Shown here piece after piece: positions 25,791 through 37,585 of a stretch of DNA of 64,000 bases (positions are counted from its first letter, which is position 1; every line of letters begins with the position of its first letter). The notes beneath the pieces are model-generated. The model was not told the origin of the DNA. It searched no databases and was given only the letters and a program-made list of their open reading frames with translations. Origin of the DNA: Nitrospinales bacterium (lineage in GTDB: Bacteria > Nitrospinota > Nitrospinia > Nitrospinales > VA-1); contig OZ253496.1 in assembly GCA_965262115.1 (NCBI GenBank), forward strand, positions 864,001 to 928,000. Direction: 5' to 3'. The position numbers and the translations under genes are program-made.

Positions 25791-26591
25791 TCACAATTGA
25801 GTGTCTGTGAATTCAATATGGGATGCAGCCTTGACCAACTGGTCAGAGTTTTTCCATTGCAACTTGTCCTGGGGGATGAGAAAGTCGCCTTCGGCGTTGC
25901 GGAAGGGGCGCCACTCCCGGTCCAGATAAACCTCATTAGGCCTGAAGCTTGCCTTATAGACCAAGGATGCATTGTCGGAAATATAATAACCGAGATAAAA
26001 ATATTTGATCCGGCTCGTGAGGGCATATTCCATCTGCTTCAATACGCTGAAAGTTCCCAGGCTCATTTTTTTGTCGGGAACCTGATAAAAAGTATAAATA
26101 GCGGAAAAAGACTGGGATGTTCTGTCGCCTAGCGCCACGCCAATGAGCTTTCCATCAAGATAGTATTCGAACTCAATTCCAAAAGGCGTGTTGACATAAA
26201 AAGACAGTCGGAAATTTTGTTCGTCTTCCACATCATCCTGCAGGGAAAAAAATCTTTCCTTGTGAATGAGGTAAAGCTCAAATTTCTCATGAGTATATTG
26301 CGGGACACCAATCTTGACCTCCACACCCTTACAGGAAGCCAAAGCCCGTTTCTGGTTACGAGTCATTTTGAAATTCTCGATCCGCACCCGGATGGGAATG
26401 CACTGGTAGCAGTCCTGACAGCGGGGACGAAAAAAGTAATCCCCGAAATGGCGCATGCCATGAGCCAACAGGTATTCAAATTCCACCTCTGAGACATCTT
26501 CAAGCAGGTACTCCTCGAACAGGGATTTTCTATCCTTAAAATACCCGCATTGAAATGATCTGGAATCTATAAAATGGGCTAACATATTCAC
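25791..26591 (-). CDS. ATE1-like aminoacyl-tRNA--protein transferase (Bpt type)
   Basis: CGY, GMRHFG..FRPRC..C..CIPIRV, SLGTFSVL..YLGY and YKASFRP. Confidence 0.85.
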   Translation of the reverse strand: MNMLAHFIDSRSFQCGYFKDRKSLFEEYLLEDVSEVEFEYLLAHGMRHFGDYFFRPRCQDCYQCIPIRVRIENFKMTRNQKRALASCKGVEVKIGVPQYTHEKFELYLIHKERFFSLQDDVEDEQNFRLSFYVNTPFGIEFEYYLDGKLIGVALGDRTSQSFSAIYTFYQVPDKKMSLGTFSVLKQMEYALTSRIKYFYLGYYISDNASLVYKASFRPNEVYLDREWRPFRNAEGDFLIPQDKLQWKNSDQLVKAASHIEFTDTQL

Positions 26592-26847
26592 TTCCCCCCG
26601 CTGAGTGGAGGGGAATCCTCAAATTAAGTATCTATGATCTCATTATTCTATAATACTTTACTGTCAGATGACAAATCAGGATAAGAGACCTATATGCCTG
26701 ATATCCATTTTCAGCCCCACGATGGTCGTGAGGTTTGAAATTCTGCCCGTTTTATGATTAACTTTCCTCGCGTGGGCAGGACCCAAACAGCACAGAAACT
26801 TCAATAAACGCAAAAGTTACTCCCTTCCCTTGTGGAGATATATCGGT

Positions 26848-27522
26848 TTGAAGGTATCCATCATCGTTCCCACTCTTAATGAAGAGTTTGTTCTCGAGAA
26901 AACCCTGACACAAATCCAACAGCTTTCTCCTCATGAGTTGATTGTCAGCTATGGCGGGAGTGATGATGATACCCGCCTTATTGCCAAAAAGTTCAGCCAC
27001 CGCGTCATCACCGGGTCTGCCGGTCGCGCTATGCAAATGAATGCCGGTGCCGACGAAGCCACCGGTGATCTATTGCTTTTTTTGCATGCCGACAACCGAC
27101 TCGAGCCTGAAAGCTATCGAAAAATGCTGGAGCACATGGAGAATCCTGAATGGATCGGAGGCGCCTTCACACTCTGTATAGAATCCCAAAAATGGTCCAT
27201 CAAGTTGATTGCCCTGTTAGCCAATATCCGCTCGAAATATTTTGGCCTCGCTTATGGTGATCAGGGGTTCTTTGTCCGTAAAGAGGTTTTCAAAAACATG
27301 AATGGATTCTCCCCTCTTCCTATTTGTGAAGATCTTGATTTCTACTGCCGCTTGAGAAAGAAAGGACCTGTTATCTTGCTAAAGGAAAAGACGCATACTT
27401 CCCCAAGACGCTGGATCAAGGAAGGAATCGTTTTCACCACAGCAAGGAATATCCTCATCGCCATCCTGTTCGGCCTGGGGTTCCCGCCGCGCACCCTGAC
27501 CAAATGGTATCCCCCCCACTAG
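26848..27522 (+). CDS. GT2 glycosyltransferase, TIGR04283-like (arsenosugar-biosynthesis-associated family)
   Basis: IIVPTLNE, GRAMQMNAGA, FLHAD, YGDQGFF, EDLD and TSPRRW; the conserved DGGS reads YGGS. Confidence 0.8.
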   Translation: MKVSIIVPTLNEEFVLEKTLTQIQQLSPHELIVSYGGSDDDTRLIAKKFSHRVITGSAGRAMQMNAGADEATGDLLLFLHADNRLEPESYRKMLEHMENPEWIGGAFTLCIESQKWSIKLIALLANIRSKYFGLAYGDQGFFVRKEVFKNMNGFSPLPICEDLDFYCRLRKKGPVILLKEKTHTSPRRWIKEGIVFTTARNILIAILFGLGFPPRTLTKWYPPH

Positions 27523-27571: not shown

Positions 27572-28000
27572 TCATTCAACTTTCACTTTTTTCTGTTCAA
27601 ACAGGGCATCCAAAATAGGGCAATCAGGCACTACTCCCCCTTCACATTTTGAAGAAATTTCAGCCAATATTTTTTCCAGCTTTTTTAAATCCAAAATCTT
27701 TTGATGAATATTCCCCAGGTGATGAAGAGTGATATCTTCCACCTGCTGACAGGTGTAAGCCCCTCCATCAATTAGTTTCAAAAGGGCTCGGATATCCGCA
27801 AGCGAAAATCCTAGTTCCCTGCACCGACAAATAAATACAAGCCGCTTTAAGTGACTTTCACTATAAATCCGGTGTCCACCTTCTGTTCTGGGCGGTTTCG
27901 GGAAGATTTCAATCTTTTCATAATATCTGATTGTTTCGATCTTACAATTAGTTTGCCTGGACAAAAGCCCAATGCTCAAGTTTTTTTCTTGATTTGGCAT
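27572..28000 (-). CDS. MerR-family heavy-metal-responsive activator (three-Cys, MerR/CadR/PbrR type)
   Basis: IETIRYYE HTH, RELGFSL, and Cys84, Cys119, Cys127. Confidence 0.92.
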   Translation of the reverse strand: MPNQEKNLSIGLLSRQTNCKIETIRYYEKIEIFPKPPRTEGGHRIYSESHLKRLVFICRCRELGFSLADIRALLKLIDGGAYTCQQVEDITLHHLGNIHQKILDLKKLEKILAEISSKCEGGVVPDCPILDALFEQKKVKVE

Positions 28001-28008
28001 AATAATCC

Positions 28009-28039
28009 TTGAACCTGTAGTTACTACAGGTTCTATATT
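28009..28039 (+). promoter_or_regulatory. MerR-type promoter/operator
   Basis: -35 TTGAAC, 19-bp spacer, -10 TATATT; perfect dyad GAACCTGTAG-TTA-CTACAGGTTC (28011-28033). Confidence 0.93.
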
Positions 28040-28110
28040 ATAAATGAATAAAGGATTTCATGGAAAGGTGAATCTAGCCAAAAGACAAATCAAATTTTAA
28101 GGGGACAACT

Positions 28111-28821
28111 ATGGACAACACAAAAATTGACCACGAAATTACATCTGCTTTTGGGCTTGATATCCCCCCAATAGCAATGGCCTTTGTTGATGATCAACCG
28201 CAGGGAGTGGAAACAATCGAGGAAGAAGTTCCGTCCTTTTGTACTTTTTGGCGCATGGCAGAGAAAAAAGCGTTCTATGCCCCGGCAAATAAACATTATA
28301 ACTGCCCCATAGGAGCCATGGTGTTGGGATTCGAGATGCCCAAAGAGGTACAGGAACAATTGGGTGGTTTGGTTAAAAAAATGTGTGAATGCTCTTACTT
28401 GTCAGAAGATGAGCCTGCAAATATTCCTACCCTTACAGAAAAAAAAGTCGGCGTGGTTTATGGACCCTTGAAAGACTTTCCTGTGGAACCGCAATTGATC
28501 TTGATGTGGTTGAAACCCTCACAGGCAATGATTTACAACAAGGTTTTGGGATGCTGCAAATGGTCTGGAAGTATGGATTCTATGGCATTGGGTCGTCCGG
28601 CTTGCGCTGTGATTCCAACGACCTTAAATAAATCACCTTTTGGCATGTCTTTAGGTTGCACTGGAATGCGTACTTTCACTGAAGTCAGTGATGATCATAT
28701 TCTGGCTACACTCAATTGCAAAGAAATAGATTCCTTCCTGACCAGTCTCCAAACAACTTTATCAGCGAACAAGGAGATGAAAGAATTCTATTTAGATCAT
28801 AAAAAAAATATTACAGGTTAA
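28111..28821 (+). CDS. DUF169 family Cys-rich protein
   Basis: SFC..NCPIGA..LG, YGPL..F..P..GRPAC..SLGCTGMR pattern; 9 Cys. Confidence 0.75.
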   Translation: MDNTKIDHEITSAFGLDIPPIAMAFVDDQPQGVETIEEEVPSFCTFWRMAEKKAFYAPANKHYNCPIGAMVLGFEMPKEVQEQLGGLVKKMCECSYLSEDEPANIPTLTEKKVGVVYGPLKDFPVEPQLILMWLKPSQAMIYNKVLGCCKWSGSMDSMALGRPACAVIPTTLNKSPFGMSLGCTGMRTFTEVSDDHILATLNCKEIDSFLTSLQTTLSANKEMKEFYLDHKKNITG

Positions 28822-28876
28822 ATATGGTCCGTTTTCAATTTAAAAGAATTAAAACTTGAATAAAGGAAACAATATT

Positions 28877-29146
28877 ATGCCAAAGAGAAAAGTTGAAGTT
28901 TTTACAAGTGGTTGCCCAATTTGTGAGCCCACCATGGACCTTGTCAAAAGCTTGGCTTGTCCATCGTGTGAAGTCACTGTTTATGATTTAACCAAGGACG
29001 AGAATAAAGAAATTCAAAACAAGGCGGCATTTTATGGAATCGAAAGGATTCCTGCGGTCGCAGTAGATGAAAAATTATTGGAATGCTGCGAAATGAGTTC
29101 GGTTTCTGAAAGCATATTAAGACAGGCAGGGATAGGGAGCGCATAA
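28877..29146 (+). CDS. small thioredoxin/glutaredoxin-fold protein with CxxC, CPSC and CC
   Basis: VFTSGCPIC, ACPSC, IPAVAVD and ECC. Confidence 0.82.
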   Translation: MPKRKVEVFTSGCPICEPTMDLVKSLACPSCEVTVYDLTKDENKEIQNKAAFYGIERIPAVAVDEKLLECCEMSSVSESILRQAGIGSA

Positions 29147-29174
29147 ATTTTAATTATTTTGGAAGGTTTTTATT

Positions 29175-29807
29175 ATGTCGTTTGTCTACATGAAAATCCT
29201 TGAGTCTCGCCCTGAACGTTACGATATAGGGATGGGTCTTTTGACTCTAGGAACATTGACAAAAATAAAACAGCAGATAGCCGAACATACCCATCCCGGC
29301 GACCACGTTCTCGATTTAGGTTGCGGTACTGGAACTCTCGCGCAAATGTGTATCGAGCGAGGAGCAATAGTGACAGGAGTAGACACCAATAGCGGCATGC
29401 TAGCAGTGGCAAAGAGAAATTCGCCCTCGGCAAACTACCTTAATATTAGCCTTAGCAACCTCGATGAGCATTTAAGGGATGAATCGTTCGATATTATTTT
29501 GAGCACGCTTGCTTTCAGCGAACTGACCCGTGCCGAACGAATTCATGTATTGAAACAGATCAAAAGAATACTGAAAAATGAAGGGAAAGTTCTTATCGGC
29601 GATGAAATAATCCCCGAAAACTTTTTTGCCAAATGCTTTTACTATGCCTTCAGGTTGCCTATGCGGCTTCTTACTTGGATTATGACTCAAACCACAACCA
29701 ATGCCATCTCCAGTTTTGATGATGAAGTTCTTGAAGCAGGCATGCAAATGGTCAATCGTAAACCATTTATGCTGGGCATGTTCATTCTTTTAGAAATTAA
29801 AAAATGA
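29175..29807 (+). CDS. class I SAM-dependent methyltransferase (UbiE-like; corrinoid-protein-associated)
   Basis: VLDLGCGTG, GVD..ML..A, SFDII and LK.EG; ATGA overlap with the next gene. Confidence 0.88.
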   Translation: MSFVYMKILESRPERYDIGMGLLTLGTLTKIKQQIAEHTHPGDHVLDLGCGTGTLAQMCIERGAIVTGVDTNSGMLAVAKRNSPSANYLNISLSNLDEHLRDESFDIILSTLAFSELTRAERIHVLKQIKRILKNEGKVLIGDEIIPENFFAKCFYYAFRLPMRLLTWIMTQTTTNAISSFDDEVLEAGMQMVNRKPFMLGMFILLEIKK

Positions 29808-30673
29808 TTGGCTGGATTAAAGACATATATCAAACCCTTTTTCGGTTTGCCCGATTTCCGTGCGAACCTGAAACAGTGGCTATCGGTAACCCAGACAAAT
29901 CTTCTCCCATTCTCGTCACATGCAATTTTGACTATACGGTCAGGCATCTAAAGGAATATTTGAAAAAAGAAGCTTTAGATTGTTTCCTTTTAGTGGTCAA
30001 TACCCAGGGAACCAATGTCTGGTGTGCAGCCGCCGAAGGTATTTTTACTACCGAAACAGTTCTGGCCCACTTGAAGGTTTACAATGTAGGAGAACTAGTC
30101 AACCACAATCAGTTAATATTGCCGCAATTGTCCGTGGCTGGAGTTAAAAGAAAAGATCTTAAAGAACAAGGCTGGGAAGGCATATACGGCCCAGTTTACT
30201 TTACTGATTTAAAAGAATTTTTAAATAATGGTTTGACCAAGAACAAGGATATGCAGGCTCTCCAGTACGGTTATTGGGAGCGTTTTAAAATGGGCCTCAG
30301 TCATGCAGTTTTCTGTACGCTAGTCTGTATTCTCCCAATTTTTATTTTTGCTTCCGATTGGTGGATACAATCAGTCGCTCTAGTTTGGTATTTCGCTTTC
30401 AGCATGCAACTGGTTGAACATTTTATTCCCCTCGAAAGATTGCTGCATAAAGGTCTAGTGCTTTCCTTGCCAATTTTAGTCCTTGCACTAACTTCTATTT
30501 CCGATCCTGTTTTGAAAATACAGGCAACGTCTGGAATTATTGCCCTGGGAGCCTATATTGGATATGATGCGCAAGGTCATTCACATTTTGGGCAAAACCA
30601 GCAATCCGGTAAAATTTTTGCCAGAATTTTCGGCTTTTTGGTTCTGGTTTATGGAGGAACATTATTGATATGA
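29804..30673 (+). CDS. HgcA-like corrinoid-binding protein (CdhD/CFeSP-like domain plus C-terminal TM helices)
   Basis: GNPDKSSPILVTCNF..T, LVVNTQGTNVWCAAAEG cap helix, LILPQL..GV, GPV, then a hydrophobic C-terminus; no ferredoxin domain. Confidence 0.88.
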   Translation: MIGWIKDIYQTLFRFARFPCEPETVAIGNPDKSSPILVTCNFDYTVRHLKEYLKKEALDCFLLVVNTQGTNVWCAAAEGIFTTETVLAHLKVYNVGELVNHNQLILPQLSVAGVKRKDLKEQGWEGIYGPVYFTDLKEFLNNGLTKNKDMQALQYGYWERFKMGLSHAVFCTLVCILPIFIFASDWWIQSVALVWYFAFSMQLVEHFIPLERLLHKGLVLSLPILVLALTSISDPVLKIQATSGIIALGAYIGYDAQGHSHFGQNQQSGKIFARIFGFLVLVYGGTLLI

Positions 30674-30858
30674 AAAAATATGTAGATTGGGACAAAATAG
30701 AAGAAGATACCGTTTCCGCTGAAGAAGCTTGTGAATGCACGAGAAGCAAATTGCAATCACTGATTGATTTCGTGGTGGAATTATTACCCAAAAAAAAGGA
30801 ATCCTCTTGTTGTGATGAAATGAATCAAGAAGATAAGTGCCGATGCAATGACAGCTGA
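30670..30858 (+). CDS. small acidic Cys-rich protein
   Basis: 62 aa with CEC, CC and CRC; overlaps both neighbours; GGAGG RBS. Confidence 0.6.
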   Translation: MKKYVDWDKIEEDTVSAEEACECTRSKLQSLIDFVVELLPKKKESSCCDEMNQEDKCRCNDS

Positions 30859-31276
30859 CACAACAGGAACAGCAAAAAAGATTGTGACTTCCATTTGCCC
30901 CACCTGTGGTTGTTCTTTAGTTCGGCTGGGAATAGGTTCGGACCGATGGGCACAGACTAATTATGAAGGCAAGGAATATTTCTTTTGTTGCCAAGGCTGC
31001 GCCGACCTGTTTAATGAAGAACCCCCAAGATATCTTCAAGAAACCAAAGATTTGGTGGTGTGTCCGACCTGCTTAGCAGAAAAACCGGTGCAATGGACTG
31101 TGCGTATGGAAATTGCAGGGTGGGAAGCATATTTTTGCCGATGCCCCTACTGCCCGGAAGTATTCCAAAAGGATCCCGATCACTACGTCAAACGTTTACA
31201 GGGTGAGATCCCCTATGATGGCGTGTTCGGTCAAGCTGGATGTTGCTCCTCTGACGAATTCGAGCCGACCAAATAA
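30848..31276 (+). CDS. tandem YHS/TRASH metal-binding domain protein
   Basis: Two repeats CPTC..YFFCCQGC..F..P..Y and CPTC..YFCRCPYC..F..P..Y; C-terminal GCC; 13 Cys. Confidence 0.85.
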   Translation: MTADTTGTAKKIVTSICPTCGCSLVRLGIGSDRWAQTNYEGKEYFFCCQGCADLFNEEPPRYLQETKDLVVCPTCLAEKPVQWTVRMEIAGWEAYFCRCPYCPEVFQKDPDHYVKRLQGEIPYDGVFGQAGCCSSDEFEPTK

Positions 31277-31476: not shown

Positions 31477-32289
31477 TCAGTCCATCACCAGAGTGGTTAA
31501 ACGTTTTGCCAGTTCTGATCCTCGAATGATCTTGCGCACAGGGCGTTCTATAAAGTTTAGACTCATATAAAGTCGTTCCAGATTCATAAAAGTTTGCGAC
31601 TCGGCAATCGCCTTACCACCCTCGTCCCGAATCTCATTGCGCCAAATACTCAGGACATTAAGGTTTTTCAGGCTTGCAGATTTCGCCAGGGCAATGGCCC
31701 CCGCATCCCCCATTTTATTCGAGCACAAATACAGTTTTTTCAGATGGGTCAAACACGGGCTTTCTGCAATCGCCTGGATTCCCTCATCGCCGATCCCAGT
31801 GCTGTCGAGATGGAGCGCCTGTAAGCGGGGCAGTTGCTCCGAACAGGCCACGACCCGAGCCCCTTGGGGACCAATCGGGTTGGAGTCCAGAAACAGGACT
31901 TCCAGGTTTTTAAGGTTTTGGGAACCGGCCAGAGCTTCGGCACCCTGGGTTCCGATATTATTAGCTTCCAGCATCAGGCATTTCAGGTTTTTCAATAAAT
32001 CGGCATCCGCCAGAACTTTGGCCTCCTCATCACCGATGATATTGTGATTGAGGTAAAGAGAGGTGAGCCCGGTCAATCCTTTCACACGACTGAGGATTGC
32101 TATGGACTCTCCACAAAGCTGGTTCTGGCTGAGAAAAAGCTGTTCAACCGAAGACAAGTCTTCGACATCACAAAGCAGGCGCAACTCATCCGGCCCGATA
32201 TTTTTATCTTCCAAGTCCAACAGCTTCCCATCCGGGGTCAAGTTTGCCAGAATAATTTGTTCCAATTTAGATTTAATGGCCTCTTGCAA
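31477..32289 (-). CDS. leucine-rich repeat protein (RI/GALA-like)
   Basis: About 28-aa repeats LxxLxLxxNxIGxxGAxALA. Confidence 0.9.
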   Translation of the reverse strand: MQEAIKSKLEQIILANLTPDGKLLDLEDKNIGPDELRLLCDVEDLSSVEQLFLSQNQLCGESIAILSRVKGLTGLTSLYLNHNIIGDEEAKVLADADLLKNLKCLMLEANNIGTQGAEALAGSQNLKNLEVLFLDSNPIGPQGARVVACSEQLPRLQALHLDSTGIGDEGIQAIAESPCLTHLKKLYLCSNKMGDAGAIALAKSASLKNLNVLSIWRNEIRDEGGKAIAESQTFMNLERLYMSLNFIERPVRKIIRGSELAKRLTTLVMD

Positions 32290-35326: not shown

Positions 35327-36382
35327 TCAGGAAAATTCAAACCGGCGGATGGACTCCACCATGGCTGAGGCAGAACGGGCGCTGATAAATTTTTGCTGGT
35401 CATAGCCCTTGACCATGTCCCAAGCCTGTTCAGGATACATCTCAATCAGGGGAAGGGCCACGTCATCCAGCATCCATTGCCCGTGGCGGATATCTTCCTG
35501 AATGTGAAGGTCCCAATAGCGGGTGCCCTTGTCACCCATCCCCAGGCGTTCTCCTGCCATTTTGATATTCTGAAAAGCGGCGGGAACAGAAACTTCGGTA
35601 TACAACAAACCGCCGACATAACGTAAAAAGTTTTTCTTACGCTCGGAAAGGAAAAAGCTATGGTTGATGTTGGCCAGCACTTCCCACGGCACAAGATCAA
35701 AATAAGCTTCCGGCCTGGAGTCCATATCGCATTCTTCCAGCATGGTCGCAAAATGAGTGGAATGTTTTCTGGAAAACTTCCCACTGCCATACTCTTCCCA
35801 TAAAATCCGGGTCAGCATCGTCTGCACCTCGTTTCCGACACCTCCCAACATTCGAGAAAGCTGACTGGCTTCCACCAAACCATCCAGGGAAGTGATGGCA
35901 AGCAATCGCTGATATCCGGATTTTGAAATTTCATTGCGGATGATCAATCCATCCGGAGAAGGCTCGGGTTGCAGGTCTTCTCCCACGCGGTCACGGAGGG
36001 CGTCGATGAGATTACCAGAATAGCGCGGGACACTATTACGCTCCTCCCAACCCTGCCATGCATTTTCAATTTTCAAACGCAAAGAAAACAGAAAGCTGGA
36101 ATCTTCATTGGCATAATTTTCCAACTCGTCATACCAAAACAGCTTCAAACGGTTGATGCGATAAAGAATCCTTTGCAAAAACAGGTGGGCCTGGGGGCAT
36201 CCCTCGCCATCATTAAAAGCATCCGACAAGGACGTTTCCAGTTCCGAATTAAAACTTGCGGCCTTCTCAGGATTTTCTGAAATGACCCGATCCAGATCAT
36301 CTAAATGCAACAATCCGACAAACTCCTCCTCCAATTCATGATATGCAAAATCAGTTGAGTCCGTTTGCAAATTAAAATTCAT
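35327..36382 (-). CDS. haem-oxygenase-like diiron oxidase (iron-containing redox enzyme family)
   Basis: EEYG..HSTHF, YTE and H..EDIRH metal-ligand pattern. Confidence 0.8.
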   Translation of the reverse strand: MNFNLQTDSTDFAYHELEEEFVGLLHLDDLDRVISENPEKAASFNSELETSLSDAFNDGEGCPQAHLFLQRILYRINRLKLFWYDELENYANEDSSFLFSLRLKIENAWQGWEERNSVPRYSGNLIDALRDRVGEDLQPEPSPDGLIIRNEISKSGYQRLLAITSLDGLVEASQLSRMLGGVGNEVQTMLTRILWEEYGSGKFSRKHSTHFATMLEECDMDSRPEAYFDLVPWEVLANINHSFFLSERKKNFLRYVGGLLYTEVSVPAAFQNIKMAGERLGMGDKGTRYWDLHIQEDIRHGQWMLDDVALPLIEMYPEQAWDMVKGYDQQKFISARSASAMVESIRRFEFS

Positions 36383-36589
36383 AAGCTTTGGGAATATGAA
36401 GATTAGAATTAGGGTCTGTTTATTCCTCTAAAAACCAGAACCCGAAAAACATCTTTACTGTCGGAAGCTTTGCCTCGCAGTAATCGTCAGAGACGATAAA
36501 TAAAGATGTAAAAAGGAGTTAAGAGACGTACTATAACAAACACCATCAACAAGGTCAAATTCACCAGGCAGGAAGAGGAGCCACCGTTC

Positions 36590-37585
36590 TTGTTTGAAAC
36601 AAAAATACTGAAATCCGGACCGCAATCATTCTCCCCCGAAGAACAGTTTGCCGACACCGTCAACACTGGCCTTTCCCTTGAAAACAAGCGTTTGCCATCA
36701 TGGCTGATCTTTGACAGCGTGGGAAGTGAGATTTTCAAAAAGATAACGGAACTCGCAGGATATCTTCCCGCCGCATGTGAATTTGAAATTATTCGCAACC
36801 ATAAAAACAATATTGCAAAACTTATCACCGGTAACACCTTCAACCTTATAGAACTCGGTTCAGGCGATGGATGCAAGACCCGGATTCTCATTGAGCATTT
36901 GCTGAGTAAGAAATCCAGTTTTCACTATTTCCCCATTGACATTTCCCACGGAGCGGTTACAAATCTGGTTCGGTCATTGGAAGACAACCACTCCGGCGCA
37001 TCCCTGAAGGTCACAGGATTAACCGGAGATTATTTTGAGGGTCTCAAAGCCATTTTCCAGGATGGCCCAACGCAAAACCTGGTCCTCTTTCTCGGAGTCA
37101 CCTTGAATAATATGGATCCGGACACGGCCCAGTCTTTTCTGAAAAATTTATGCAATGCATTGGGGGCGAAGGATTATCTGCTAATCGGGTTTGACCTCAT
37201 GAAAAATCCCAAATTGCTTTATTCTGCCTACAATGATTCCGAAGGACTCTTTGAAAAATTCAACCTGCACCTGCTGGACCGCATTAATCAGGAACTGGGC
37301 GCCGATTTTAACAAAGAGCACTTTGTGCAACAGGGCCAGTTCAATCCCGATACCCGCGCTGTAGAAAGTTATCTTTTCAGCACGCGGGACCAGACCGTGT
37401 ATATCAAGGCTTTAAACAAGAACTTTCACTTCAAAGCCTGGGAAGCGATGCAGACCGAGCAGTCCTTTAAATACACCCTTGAAGAAATAGAACACCTGGC
37501 CGTTAAAAACGGATTTGAAGTCGTGGAGCATTTATTTGACTCCCGAAAATATTTTGTGGATTCAATTTGGAAGGTTGCCCACTAA
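36590..37585 (+). CDS. egtD: EgtD-like L-histidine N-alpha-methyltransferase
   Basis: KRLPS..FD..GS..F..IT, IELGSGDG.KT, AYND..G..FNL..L.RIN.ELGADF and TEQSFKY. Confidence 0.8.
   Translation: MFETKILKSGPQSFSPEEQFADTVNTGLSLENKRLPSWLIFDSVGSEIFKKITELAGYLPAACEFEIIRNHKNNIAKLITGNTFNLIELGSGDGCKTRILIEHLLSKKSSFHYFPIDISHGAVTNLVRSLEDNHSGASLKVTGLTGDYFEGLKAIFQDGPTQNLVLFLGVTLNNMDPDTAQSFLKNLCNALGAKDYLLIGFDLMKNPKLLYSAYNDSEGLFEKFNLHLLDRINQELGADFNKEHFVQQGQFNPDTRAVESYLFSTRDQTVYIKALNKNFHFKAWEAMQTEQSFKYTLEEIEHLAVKNGFEVVEHLFDSRKYFVDSIWKVAH

Follow-up and report, generated by a model that had tools for sequence, protein, structure and literature searches.

The 64,000-nucleotide stretch analysed here (the window; positions 864,001 to 928,000 of contig OZ253496.1, assembly GCA_965262115.1 of a Nitrospinales bacterium) carries at 27572-31276 an operon that is a variant of the CpaM/HgcAB-like corrinoid system placed under a mer-type switch. 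Its regulator gene merR (27572-28000, minus strand; an open reading frame with the Pfam MerR domain) is divergent from six co-oriented genes on the plus strand. The latter encode a cysteine-rich DUF169 protein (28111-28821; PF02596, 87 bits), a small thioredoxin-fold protein with an ATG start and the motifs CPIC, CPSC and CC (28877-29146; PF13192), the corrinoid protein-associated S-adenosylmethionine (SAM) methyltransferase CpaM (29175-29807; NF043040, 249 bits at a cut-off of 180), an HgcA-like membrane corrinoid protein of the HgcAB-like lineage with a CdhD domain, the motif NVWCAAAE and no ferredoxin domain (29804-30673), an acidic cysteine peptide of 62 residues with, in alignment, an invariant CEC and a near-invariant CC (30670-30858), and a cysteine-rich protein with tandem YHS/TRASH-type domains (30848-31276; PF04945). 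The last four genes overlap one another by 4, 4 and 11 bp. The same arrangement had been given in the first-pass annotation of this DNA, and the open reading frames and family matches agree with it. A feature beyond that annotation is the operator, a perfect 11-bp dyad (28011-28033) within a MerR-type promoter on the plus strand (28009-28039; TTGAAC, a 19-bp spacer and TATATT). The operon block has a G+C content of 41% compared to 47% for the genome, which is below 95% of equal-sized windows. The source genome is a single contig of 2.68 Mb, 93.9% complete according to markers.

As had been claimed, hgcB, merA, merB and merT were not found within the locus, and the gene for a protein that resembles P-type ATPases and has two HMA motifs is located outside it, elsewhere in the genome. 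The lack of hgcB extended to the genome as a whole: the best HgcB score stayed below the family cut-off (31 of 99 bits) and a six-frame search for the motif C[MIL]ECG[AS]C gave no match. The top genomic score for MerA was also under its cut-off (376 of 454 bits), no MerT was found in the whole genome at the family cut-off, and MerT/MerP uptake genes were absent from it. The MerB profile had no match in the whole genome; its control also gave none, and the same model matched two other genomes. Of the genes for cobamide synthesis, cobQ, cobS and cbiD were above the cut-off, and a metH-like gene was below its own; two YfhL-type ferredoxins are encoded as well.

The regulator scored under all NCBIfam equivalog cut-offs, with 113 bits for CadR-PbrR, 112 for MerR and 111 for CueR, the MerR model TIGR02051 demanding 151 bits. 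The merA-linked relatives of this regulator at two other loci (L199 and L205) also missed the TIGR02051 cut-off, with 127 and 128 bits. The metal is, therefore, not nameable from NCBIfam, but, judged by sequence, it can presumably be named from the context. Among plasmid homologs of the regulator (46 records at E<1e-30), the six top ones, three near-copies among them, were inspected, and in 6/6 the regulator, of alphaproteobacterial type, was divergent from merT-merP-merA. The cysteines 84, 119 and 127 of the window's MerR align with C83, C118 and C126 of three plasmid relatives, and the operator core together with the 19-bp spacing was common to all six inspected plasmid mer operons. A 19-bp spacer is a mark of MerR activation; the sigma-70 scan missed the promoter because it allowed spacers of 16–18 bp only. 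The operator is present in the genome as a sole copy at ≤1 mismatch, the dyad-in-promoter arrangement is expected by chance 0.01 times per window, and both promoter and operator are kept upstream of related operons. Since the kin of the regulator, the operator, the occurrence of YHS proteins in mer operons and the merT-like genes of relatives all point to mercury, Hg(II) is likely the inducer. The initial suggestion of mercury or another soft metal(loid) thus stood as regards a soft metal and was narrowed to mercury by the regulator, the operator and the YHS context. For canonical hgcAB, regulation by Hg is reported to be absent (10.1101/2022.10.17.512643).

The survey of 120 genomes of the phylum yielded 17 carriers of the HgcA-like gene, after one match (G030), an AcsC-type protein, was dropped from the initial 18; the nearest named homologs of the protein are from Nitrospinaceae. 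CpaM was present in exactly the same 17/120 genomes, DUF169 in 18/120 (16 of these among the 17 carriers), and HgcB at E≤1e-12 in 0/120. The neighbourhoods of all 16 other carriers, which are kin and not independent, were compared, and 14 of them were of the close type. The cpaM gene stood immediately upstream of the corrinoid gene in 16/16. The cysteine peptide followed in 14/14 close-type loci (one cut by the contig end) and the YHS gene in 13/14, the remaining contig ending there. The thioredoxin-fold gene was found in 7/14, with two copies apparently frameshifted, and was absent from 6/14, so that it is a dispensable accessory. The same divergent MerR was present in nine close-type loci, with two more regulators off contig. 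Purifying selection acts on cpaM and on the genes for the corrinoid protein and the cysteine peptide. The expectation that the operon serves a soft metal, is regulated and keeps its synteny was supported by the other carriers. The genes flanking the operon vary between genera. In genome G072 the operon is reduced to a YHS fragment (L225:5465-5662), framed by the genes that also flank the locus in the window, indicating that the operon block is dispensable.

The flanks of the locus in the window are an arginyl-tRNA protein transferase-like gene (25791-26591, minus strand) and a gene for a leucine-rich-repeat protein (31477-32289, minus strand). A glycosyltransferase gene of the TIGR04283 arsenosugar family (26830-27522, plus strand; over the cut-off), convergent on merR, was excluded from the system: it adjoins the operon only in the closest relatives and was retained in G072 after the operon loss. 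Further away, the region 35327-37585 (minus strand) includes a gene for a 351-residue protein which we take to resemble an iron-containing redox enzyme, adjoining a presumed EgtD-like methyltransferase.

The coupling of the methyltransferase to the corrinoid protein, already assumed in the first-pass annotation, was supported not only by the NF043040 score, the shared genomes and the 4-bp overlap with the HgcAB-like gene, but also by fusions. A CpaM domain was fused to an HgcAB-like corrinoid protein in 15/149 representative relatives, plus two partial cases, and 11 of the 14 fusion domains scanned were over the CpaM cut-off; no such fusion occurred in any of the proteins above the HgcA cut-off. 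Eight CpaM-corrinoid fusions (P0380, P0398, P0405, P0412, P0413, P0419, P0423 and P0446) are without a ferredoxin domain, and five of them stand near the tree base, close to HgcA. Scanning of 1/64 of the genome collection with a generic SAM motif gave six outside CpaM loci and one Nitrospina locus, so that any statement on outside contexts rests on six loci; cpaM precedes an HgcA-like gene in 6/6, and the five scanned were fused HgcAB-like proteins over the cut-off. In true HgcAB the methyl group is supplied by SAM (PMC11588087), and the simplest reading of CpaM is that it probably serves as a dedicated SAM-to-cobalt methyl loader.

The cysteine peptide belongs to no family in Pfam/NCBIfam-type scans or in the Atlas. 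It is, nevertheless, a real gene, given its presence in 14/14 close-type loci and a pN/pS of about 0.17 against nine relatives. It occupies the position of the ferredoxin in relatives and was confined to operon-type loci among the best 80 of 421 YHS loci. The YHS protein has 934 homologs, and within the best 80 of the 421 loci, whose neighbourhoods were analysed, 45 belonged to this operon and 35 did not. The latter stood beside a core mer gene in 5/35 cases (130 kb), compared to 1/72 (986 kb) for the control, consisting of the 72 other loci of the CpaM collection scan; a CopZ-type protein was nearby in 11/35 and a GDCCVxC peptide in 11/35. In one case (L198:1820-3619) a tandem YHS replaced the usual HMA domain at the N-terminus of MerA (536 bits, over the cut-off), in L199 and L205 the YHS relatives were located downstream of merA, and the sole plasmid match followed merB on pMR68. 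Comparison of the YHS model with solved structures gave no match at E≤0.001, its weak rows being YHS/TRASH-type domains. TRASH proteins are known from archaeal mer operons (PMC3466566). The tandem YHS protein is likely a soft-metal chaperone. Nine other contigs (L170, L171, L174 and L176-L181) encode YHS proteins 74–79% identical to the window's, at loci where a GDCCVxC peptide is adjacent and the operon is absent; the L170-type contigs are AT-rich, marine and appear alphaproteobacterial, making a recent transfer possible. The plasmid relatives of the thioredoxin-fold protein had metal regulators and metal-resistance genes as neighbours in 4/4 cases inspected. DUF169 had no plasmid match, its Atlas clusters contained DUF169 only, and a literature search on it found nothing relevant.

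Mercury genes also accompany the operon in some relatives. A MerT-family gene is inserted between DUF169 and cpaM in G050, G011, G045 and the metagenome locus L167, to which G011 and G045 add an HMA protein, and merR-merT-merP lies directly downstream of the operon in L162/L163. The sister locus in G108 (L034:1961-5656) encodes, in this order, an ArsR-type regulator, a MerB/SaoL-like protein, CpaM, an HgcA-like protein, a 70-residue ferredoxin and a MerTP-like fusion. Here the HgcA-like protein was over the NF043039 cut-off without a fused ferredoxin, the separate ferredoxin carrying ECGAC, which suggests that the close-type lineage may have lost the ferredoxin and gained the peptide and the YHS protein. 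The upstream MerB-like gene of the G108/G110 (L033) form contains two in-frame TGA codons and is possibly a selenoprotein gene. MerA was over the cut-off in 3/120 genomes of the phylum and in 1/17 carriers, with 12 candidates scored per genome. The sole carrier MerA (L227:7826-9529 in G086:C3) is on a separate contig whose genes appear foreign and may be a binning artefact. Four genomes without an hgcA-like match (G033, G036, G038 and G008; loci L224, L228, L230 and L234) had merR-merT-HMA cassettes and no MerA over the cut-off, and in G033 a broken YHS gene was present near the cassette.

In the scheme that we consider best, Hg(II) would act on MerR and switch the operon on; CpaM would transfer the methyl group of SAM to the cobalt of the HgcA-like protein in the membrane; the YHS protein and the cysteine peptide would bring mercury, and the HgcA-like protein would pass the methyl group to it. 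The electrons for Co(I) would come from the housekeeping YfhL-type ferredoxins and not from the operon. Mercury is our best single guess for the final acceptor, with a probability of roughly 45%; the product would be methylmercury and possibly volatile dimethylmercury, a disposal independent of MerA. Hg-induced methyl transfer to mercury is favoured because mercury resistance is the origin of the parts for control and delivery, and the SAM/corrinoid methyl-transfer family that of the catalytic parts. A full version, in which Nitrospina has replaced mercuric reductase with a Hg-induced SAM/B12 methylase converting Hg to methylmercury and then to dimethylmercury as a resistance mechanism, appears unlikely.

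A number of findings weigh against mercury as the methyl acceptor, beginning with the corrinoid protein, which is not HgcA by the defining tests. It reached 134 of the 275 bits of the HgcA model NF040863, its cap motif ends in AAAE and not AAGK, and therefore differs from the six eight-residue high-stringency motifs ending with GK (the Hg-MATE list; PMC10087281), and the CC/CU metal motif present at the N-terminus of HgcA is missing (10.1101/2022.07.06.499078). The relaxed cap-helix motif N(V/I)WCA(A/G) is present as NVWCAA at residues 71–76, with the cap cysteine invariant in 30/30 aligned proteins. Against the HgcAB-like model NF043039 the score was 227 of 285 bits, the model spanning a ferredoxin domain that is absent here: the protein stops after the membrane helices, with no fused C-terminal 4Fe-4S domain. 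The predicted structure (predicted local distance difference test score 87) has a Rossmann-type domain of corrinoid type and a C-terminal bundle of membrane helices, with an HgcA model and CFeSP as the top fold matches.

The profile and tree analyses of the corrinoid protein, which the first-pass annotation had proposed as a check, placed it with the HgcAB-like proteins. Corrinoid-domain profiles of equal depth, excluding the ferredoxin, gave 197 bits for the HgcAB-like lineage versus 154 for HgcA, the held-out controls being sorted correctly in 11/11 and 8/8 cases. The nearest relatives outside the phylum were HgcAB-like proteins by search, profile and tree. In trees of 71–73 proteins, from which an outgroup AcsC row and the long-branch row P0417 were excluded and whose bootstrap was not fully settled, the protein fell within the HgcAB-like group as sister to the G108 form (98/91), with supports of 99/97 for the enclosing group and 100/100 for the HgcA clade, and was outside the HgcA clade in every tree. 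The stem branch of its lineage was long, with 1.0 changes per site. This placement is favoured and not proved, as approximately unbiased tests did not reject a position sister to HgcA (p 0.50 and 0.41).

Such a placement counts against mercury methylation, since the fused-HgcAB organisms tested so far make no methylmercury (PMC10087281). The remaining contrary points concern the operon and its context. Mer genes were beside the CpaM/HgcAB-like pair in 0/6 loci outside the phylum; 3/14 close-type loci carry, instead of this regulator, another MerR that is co-oriented; the operon is patchy, with 17/120 genomes and a deletion in G072; the YHS relatives adjoin CopZ-type proteins more often than core mer genes; and the in-operon MerT-like proteins score at or narrowly under the Pfam cut-off and far under that of NCBIfam. 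The MerB-like lyase near the sister form, far below its cut-off, would undo methylation if it were a true MerB, and the absence of MerA from carriers is no special signal because MerA is so rare phylum-wide. From the literature, methylation is not known to protect cells, a model methylator gained no Hg resistance from it, methylmercury is in some cases more toxic (PMC10083202), and HgcA expressed in Escherichia coli without HgcB was insoluble and cofactor-free (PMC11588087).

The alternative that survives best, although we regard it as somewhat unlikely, retains the Hg induction and assigns the methyl group to another acceptor, i.e., a cofactor, thiol, lipid or protein, for protection or repair, with the YHS, peptide and thioredoxin-fold proteins holding the mercury. 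It would suit the HgcAB-like ancestry of the corrinoid protein, the occurrence of the pair without mer genes in all six outside loci and the negative assays of fused-HgcAB organisms. It would, however, leave no route of Hg removal in carriers where a MerT-like importer is encoded and MerA was not detected, and the long stem is as expected if the function had shifted upon recruitment.

The corrinoid chemistry might also run in reverse, with reduced cobalt demethylating methylmercury or reducing Hg(II) to Hg(0) in place of MerB/MerA, and CpaM acting in reactivation; this is rather unlikely. The regulator, operator, MerT and YHS proteins all derive from systems of Hg demethylation and reduction, and the MerB-like gene with its two TGA codons at the sister locus fits such a role. 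Furthermore, merB without merA in many genomes implies an unknown disposal of Hg(II) (PMC8261052), and HgcAB is also able to reduce halomethanes (10.64898/2026.04.26.720869). Nevertheless, the strict coupling to a SAM methyltransferase indicates methyl loading, and the operon encodes no reductant. Methyl loading is also the favourable direction of corrinoid chemistry.

That another soft metal or metalloid (Cd, Pb, Cu, Ag or As) serves as the inducer or methyl acceptor is still less probable. The nearly equal CadR-PbrR, MerR and CueR scores, not separated by NCBIfam, and the CopZ-type proteins often adjoining YHS relatives would agree with it, as would the arsenosugar-family glycosyltransferase beside the locus and the arsenic response of ND132 hgcAB (10.1101/2022.10.17.512643). 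Contrary to this, all six of the nearest regulators inspected stand at the head of merA operons and have the operator in common, the glycosyltransferase leaves the operon beyond the closest relatives and persists in G072 after the deletion, and CpaM reached only 48.5 of the 263 bits of the ArsM cut-off. In methionine synthase, SAM methylation can trap small amounts of Co(I). On this analogy, and with the cysteine peptide in the ferredoxin position of relatives, the operon could be self-sufficient, its cysteine-rich and thioredoxin-fold proteins also giving the reducing power instead of HgcB, as the first-pass annotation had it; this is highly improbable, because dithiothreitol brings HgcAB only to Co(II), the turnover needing a low-potential reduction to Co(I) (PMC11588087), no partner carries CxxCxxCxxxC, and the thioredoxin-fold gene is missing from 6/14 close-type loci.

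For ocean mercury cycling, the evidence added here brings a standing question into sharper focus. The Nitrospina-type hgcA-like genes are the commonest open-ocean hgcA homologs (70.8% in PMC12874090) and are counted as methylation potential; according to the same source, no carrier of this type has been cultured. If the operon methylates, ocean methylmercury is tied to a resistance response, and otherwise the 'hgcA' genes counted in marine surveys belong in large part to non-methylators. Should the full methylase-resistance version hold for Nitrospina, no other Hg-inducible system of methylation would precede it, and the methylated mercury of oxygenated ocean water would have a candidate biological source. 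Gene counts may tell little about activity, as the operon is probably Hg-inducible, unlike hgcAB, and testing of the corrinoid protein alone could give a false negative, because the CpaM partner and an outside ferredoxin are probably needed.

The locus, which belongs to marine nitrite oxidisers, is real, conserved and already published, and its novelty had been overstated at first. Villar et al. (10.1101/648329) described merR1, DUF169, a 'ubiE' methyltransferase and YHS around the Nitrospina hgcA-like gene, i.e., the same neighbourhood, and proposed the same Hg-induced MerR control; the absence of a neighbouring hgcB from all Nitrospina was reported by Lin et al. (PMC10083202), who discussed them with the fused-HgcAB clade. 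In its accessible part, the account of Villar et al. is without the operator, the regulator clade, the CpaM assignment, the YHS-MerA link, the merT variants and the merA survey, and its figure legend is without the 62-residue peptide and the thioredoxin-fold gene. In the literature searched, which excludes most subscription papers, nothing was found on CpaM, this operator or the YHS-MerA link. Newly added here are the HgcAB-like placement, the CpaM coupling, the mer-type regulator and operator, the YHS-mer link and the merT-like variants.

Compared to the known systems, the operon shares with HgcA/HgcB (NF040863/NF040864) the corrinoid domain with the cap cysteine, the C-terminal membrane helices and SAM as the likely methyl source. 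It differs from them by NVWCAAAE, a score below the cut-off, the lack of both the CC/CU extension and HgcB, and the presence of a methyltransferase of its own and of a promoter of the MerR type, while hgcAB is reported not to be regulated by Hg. The HgcAB-like fusions (NF043039) with CpaM are the nearest relatives and likewise have cpaM directly upstream; in contrast to them, the operon has neither a fused nor an adjacent ferredoxin, the cysteine peptide and the tandem YHS following instead, and is under a mer-type regulator, seen in 0/6 outside loci. With the alphaproteobacterial mer operon it has in common the divergent three-cysteine MerR, the dyad operator, the promoter with a 19-bp spacer and a YHS/TRASH chaperone, and in some relatives also MerT-like and HMA genes, but MerA and MerB are absent, and a methyltransferase with a corrinoid protein stands in the place of the reductase.

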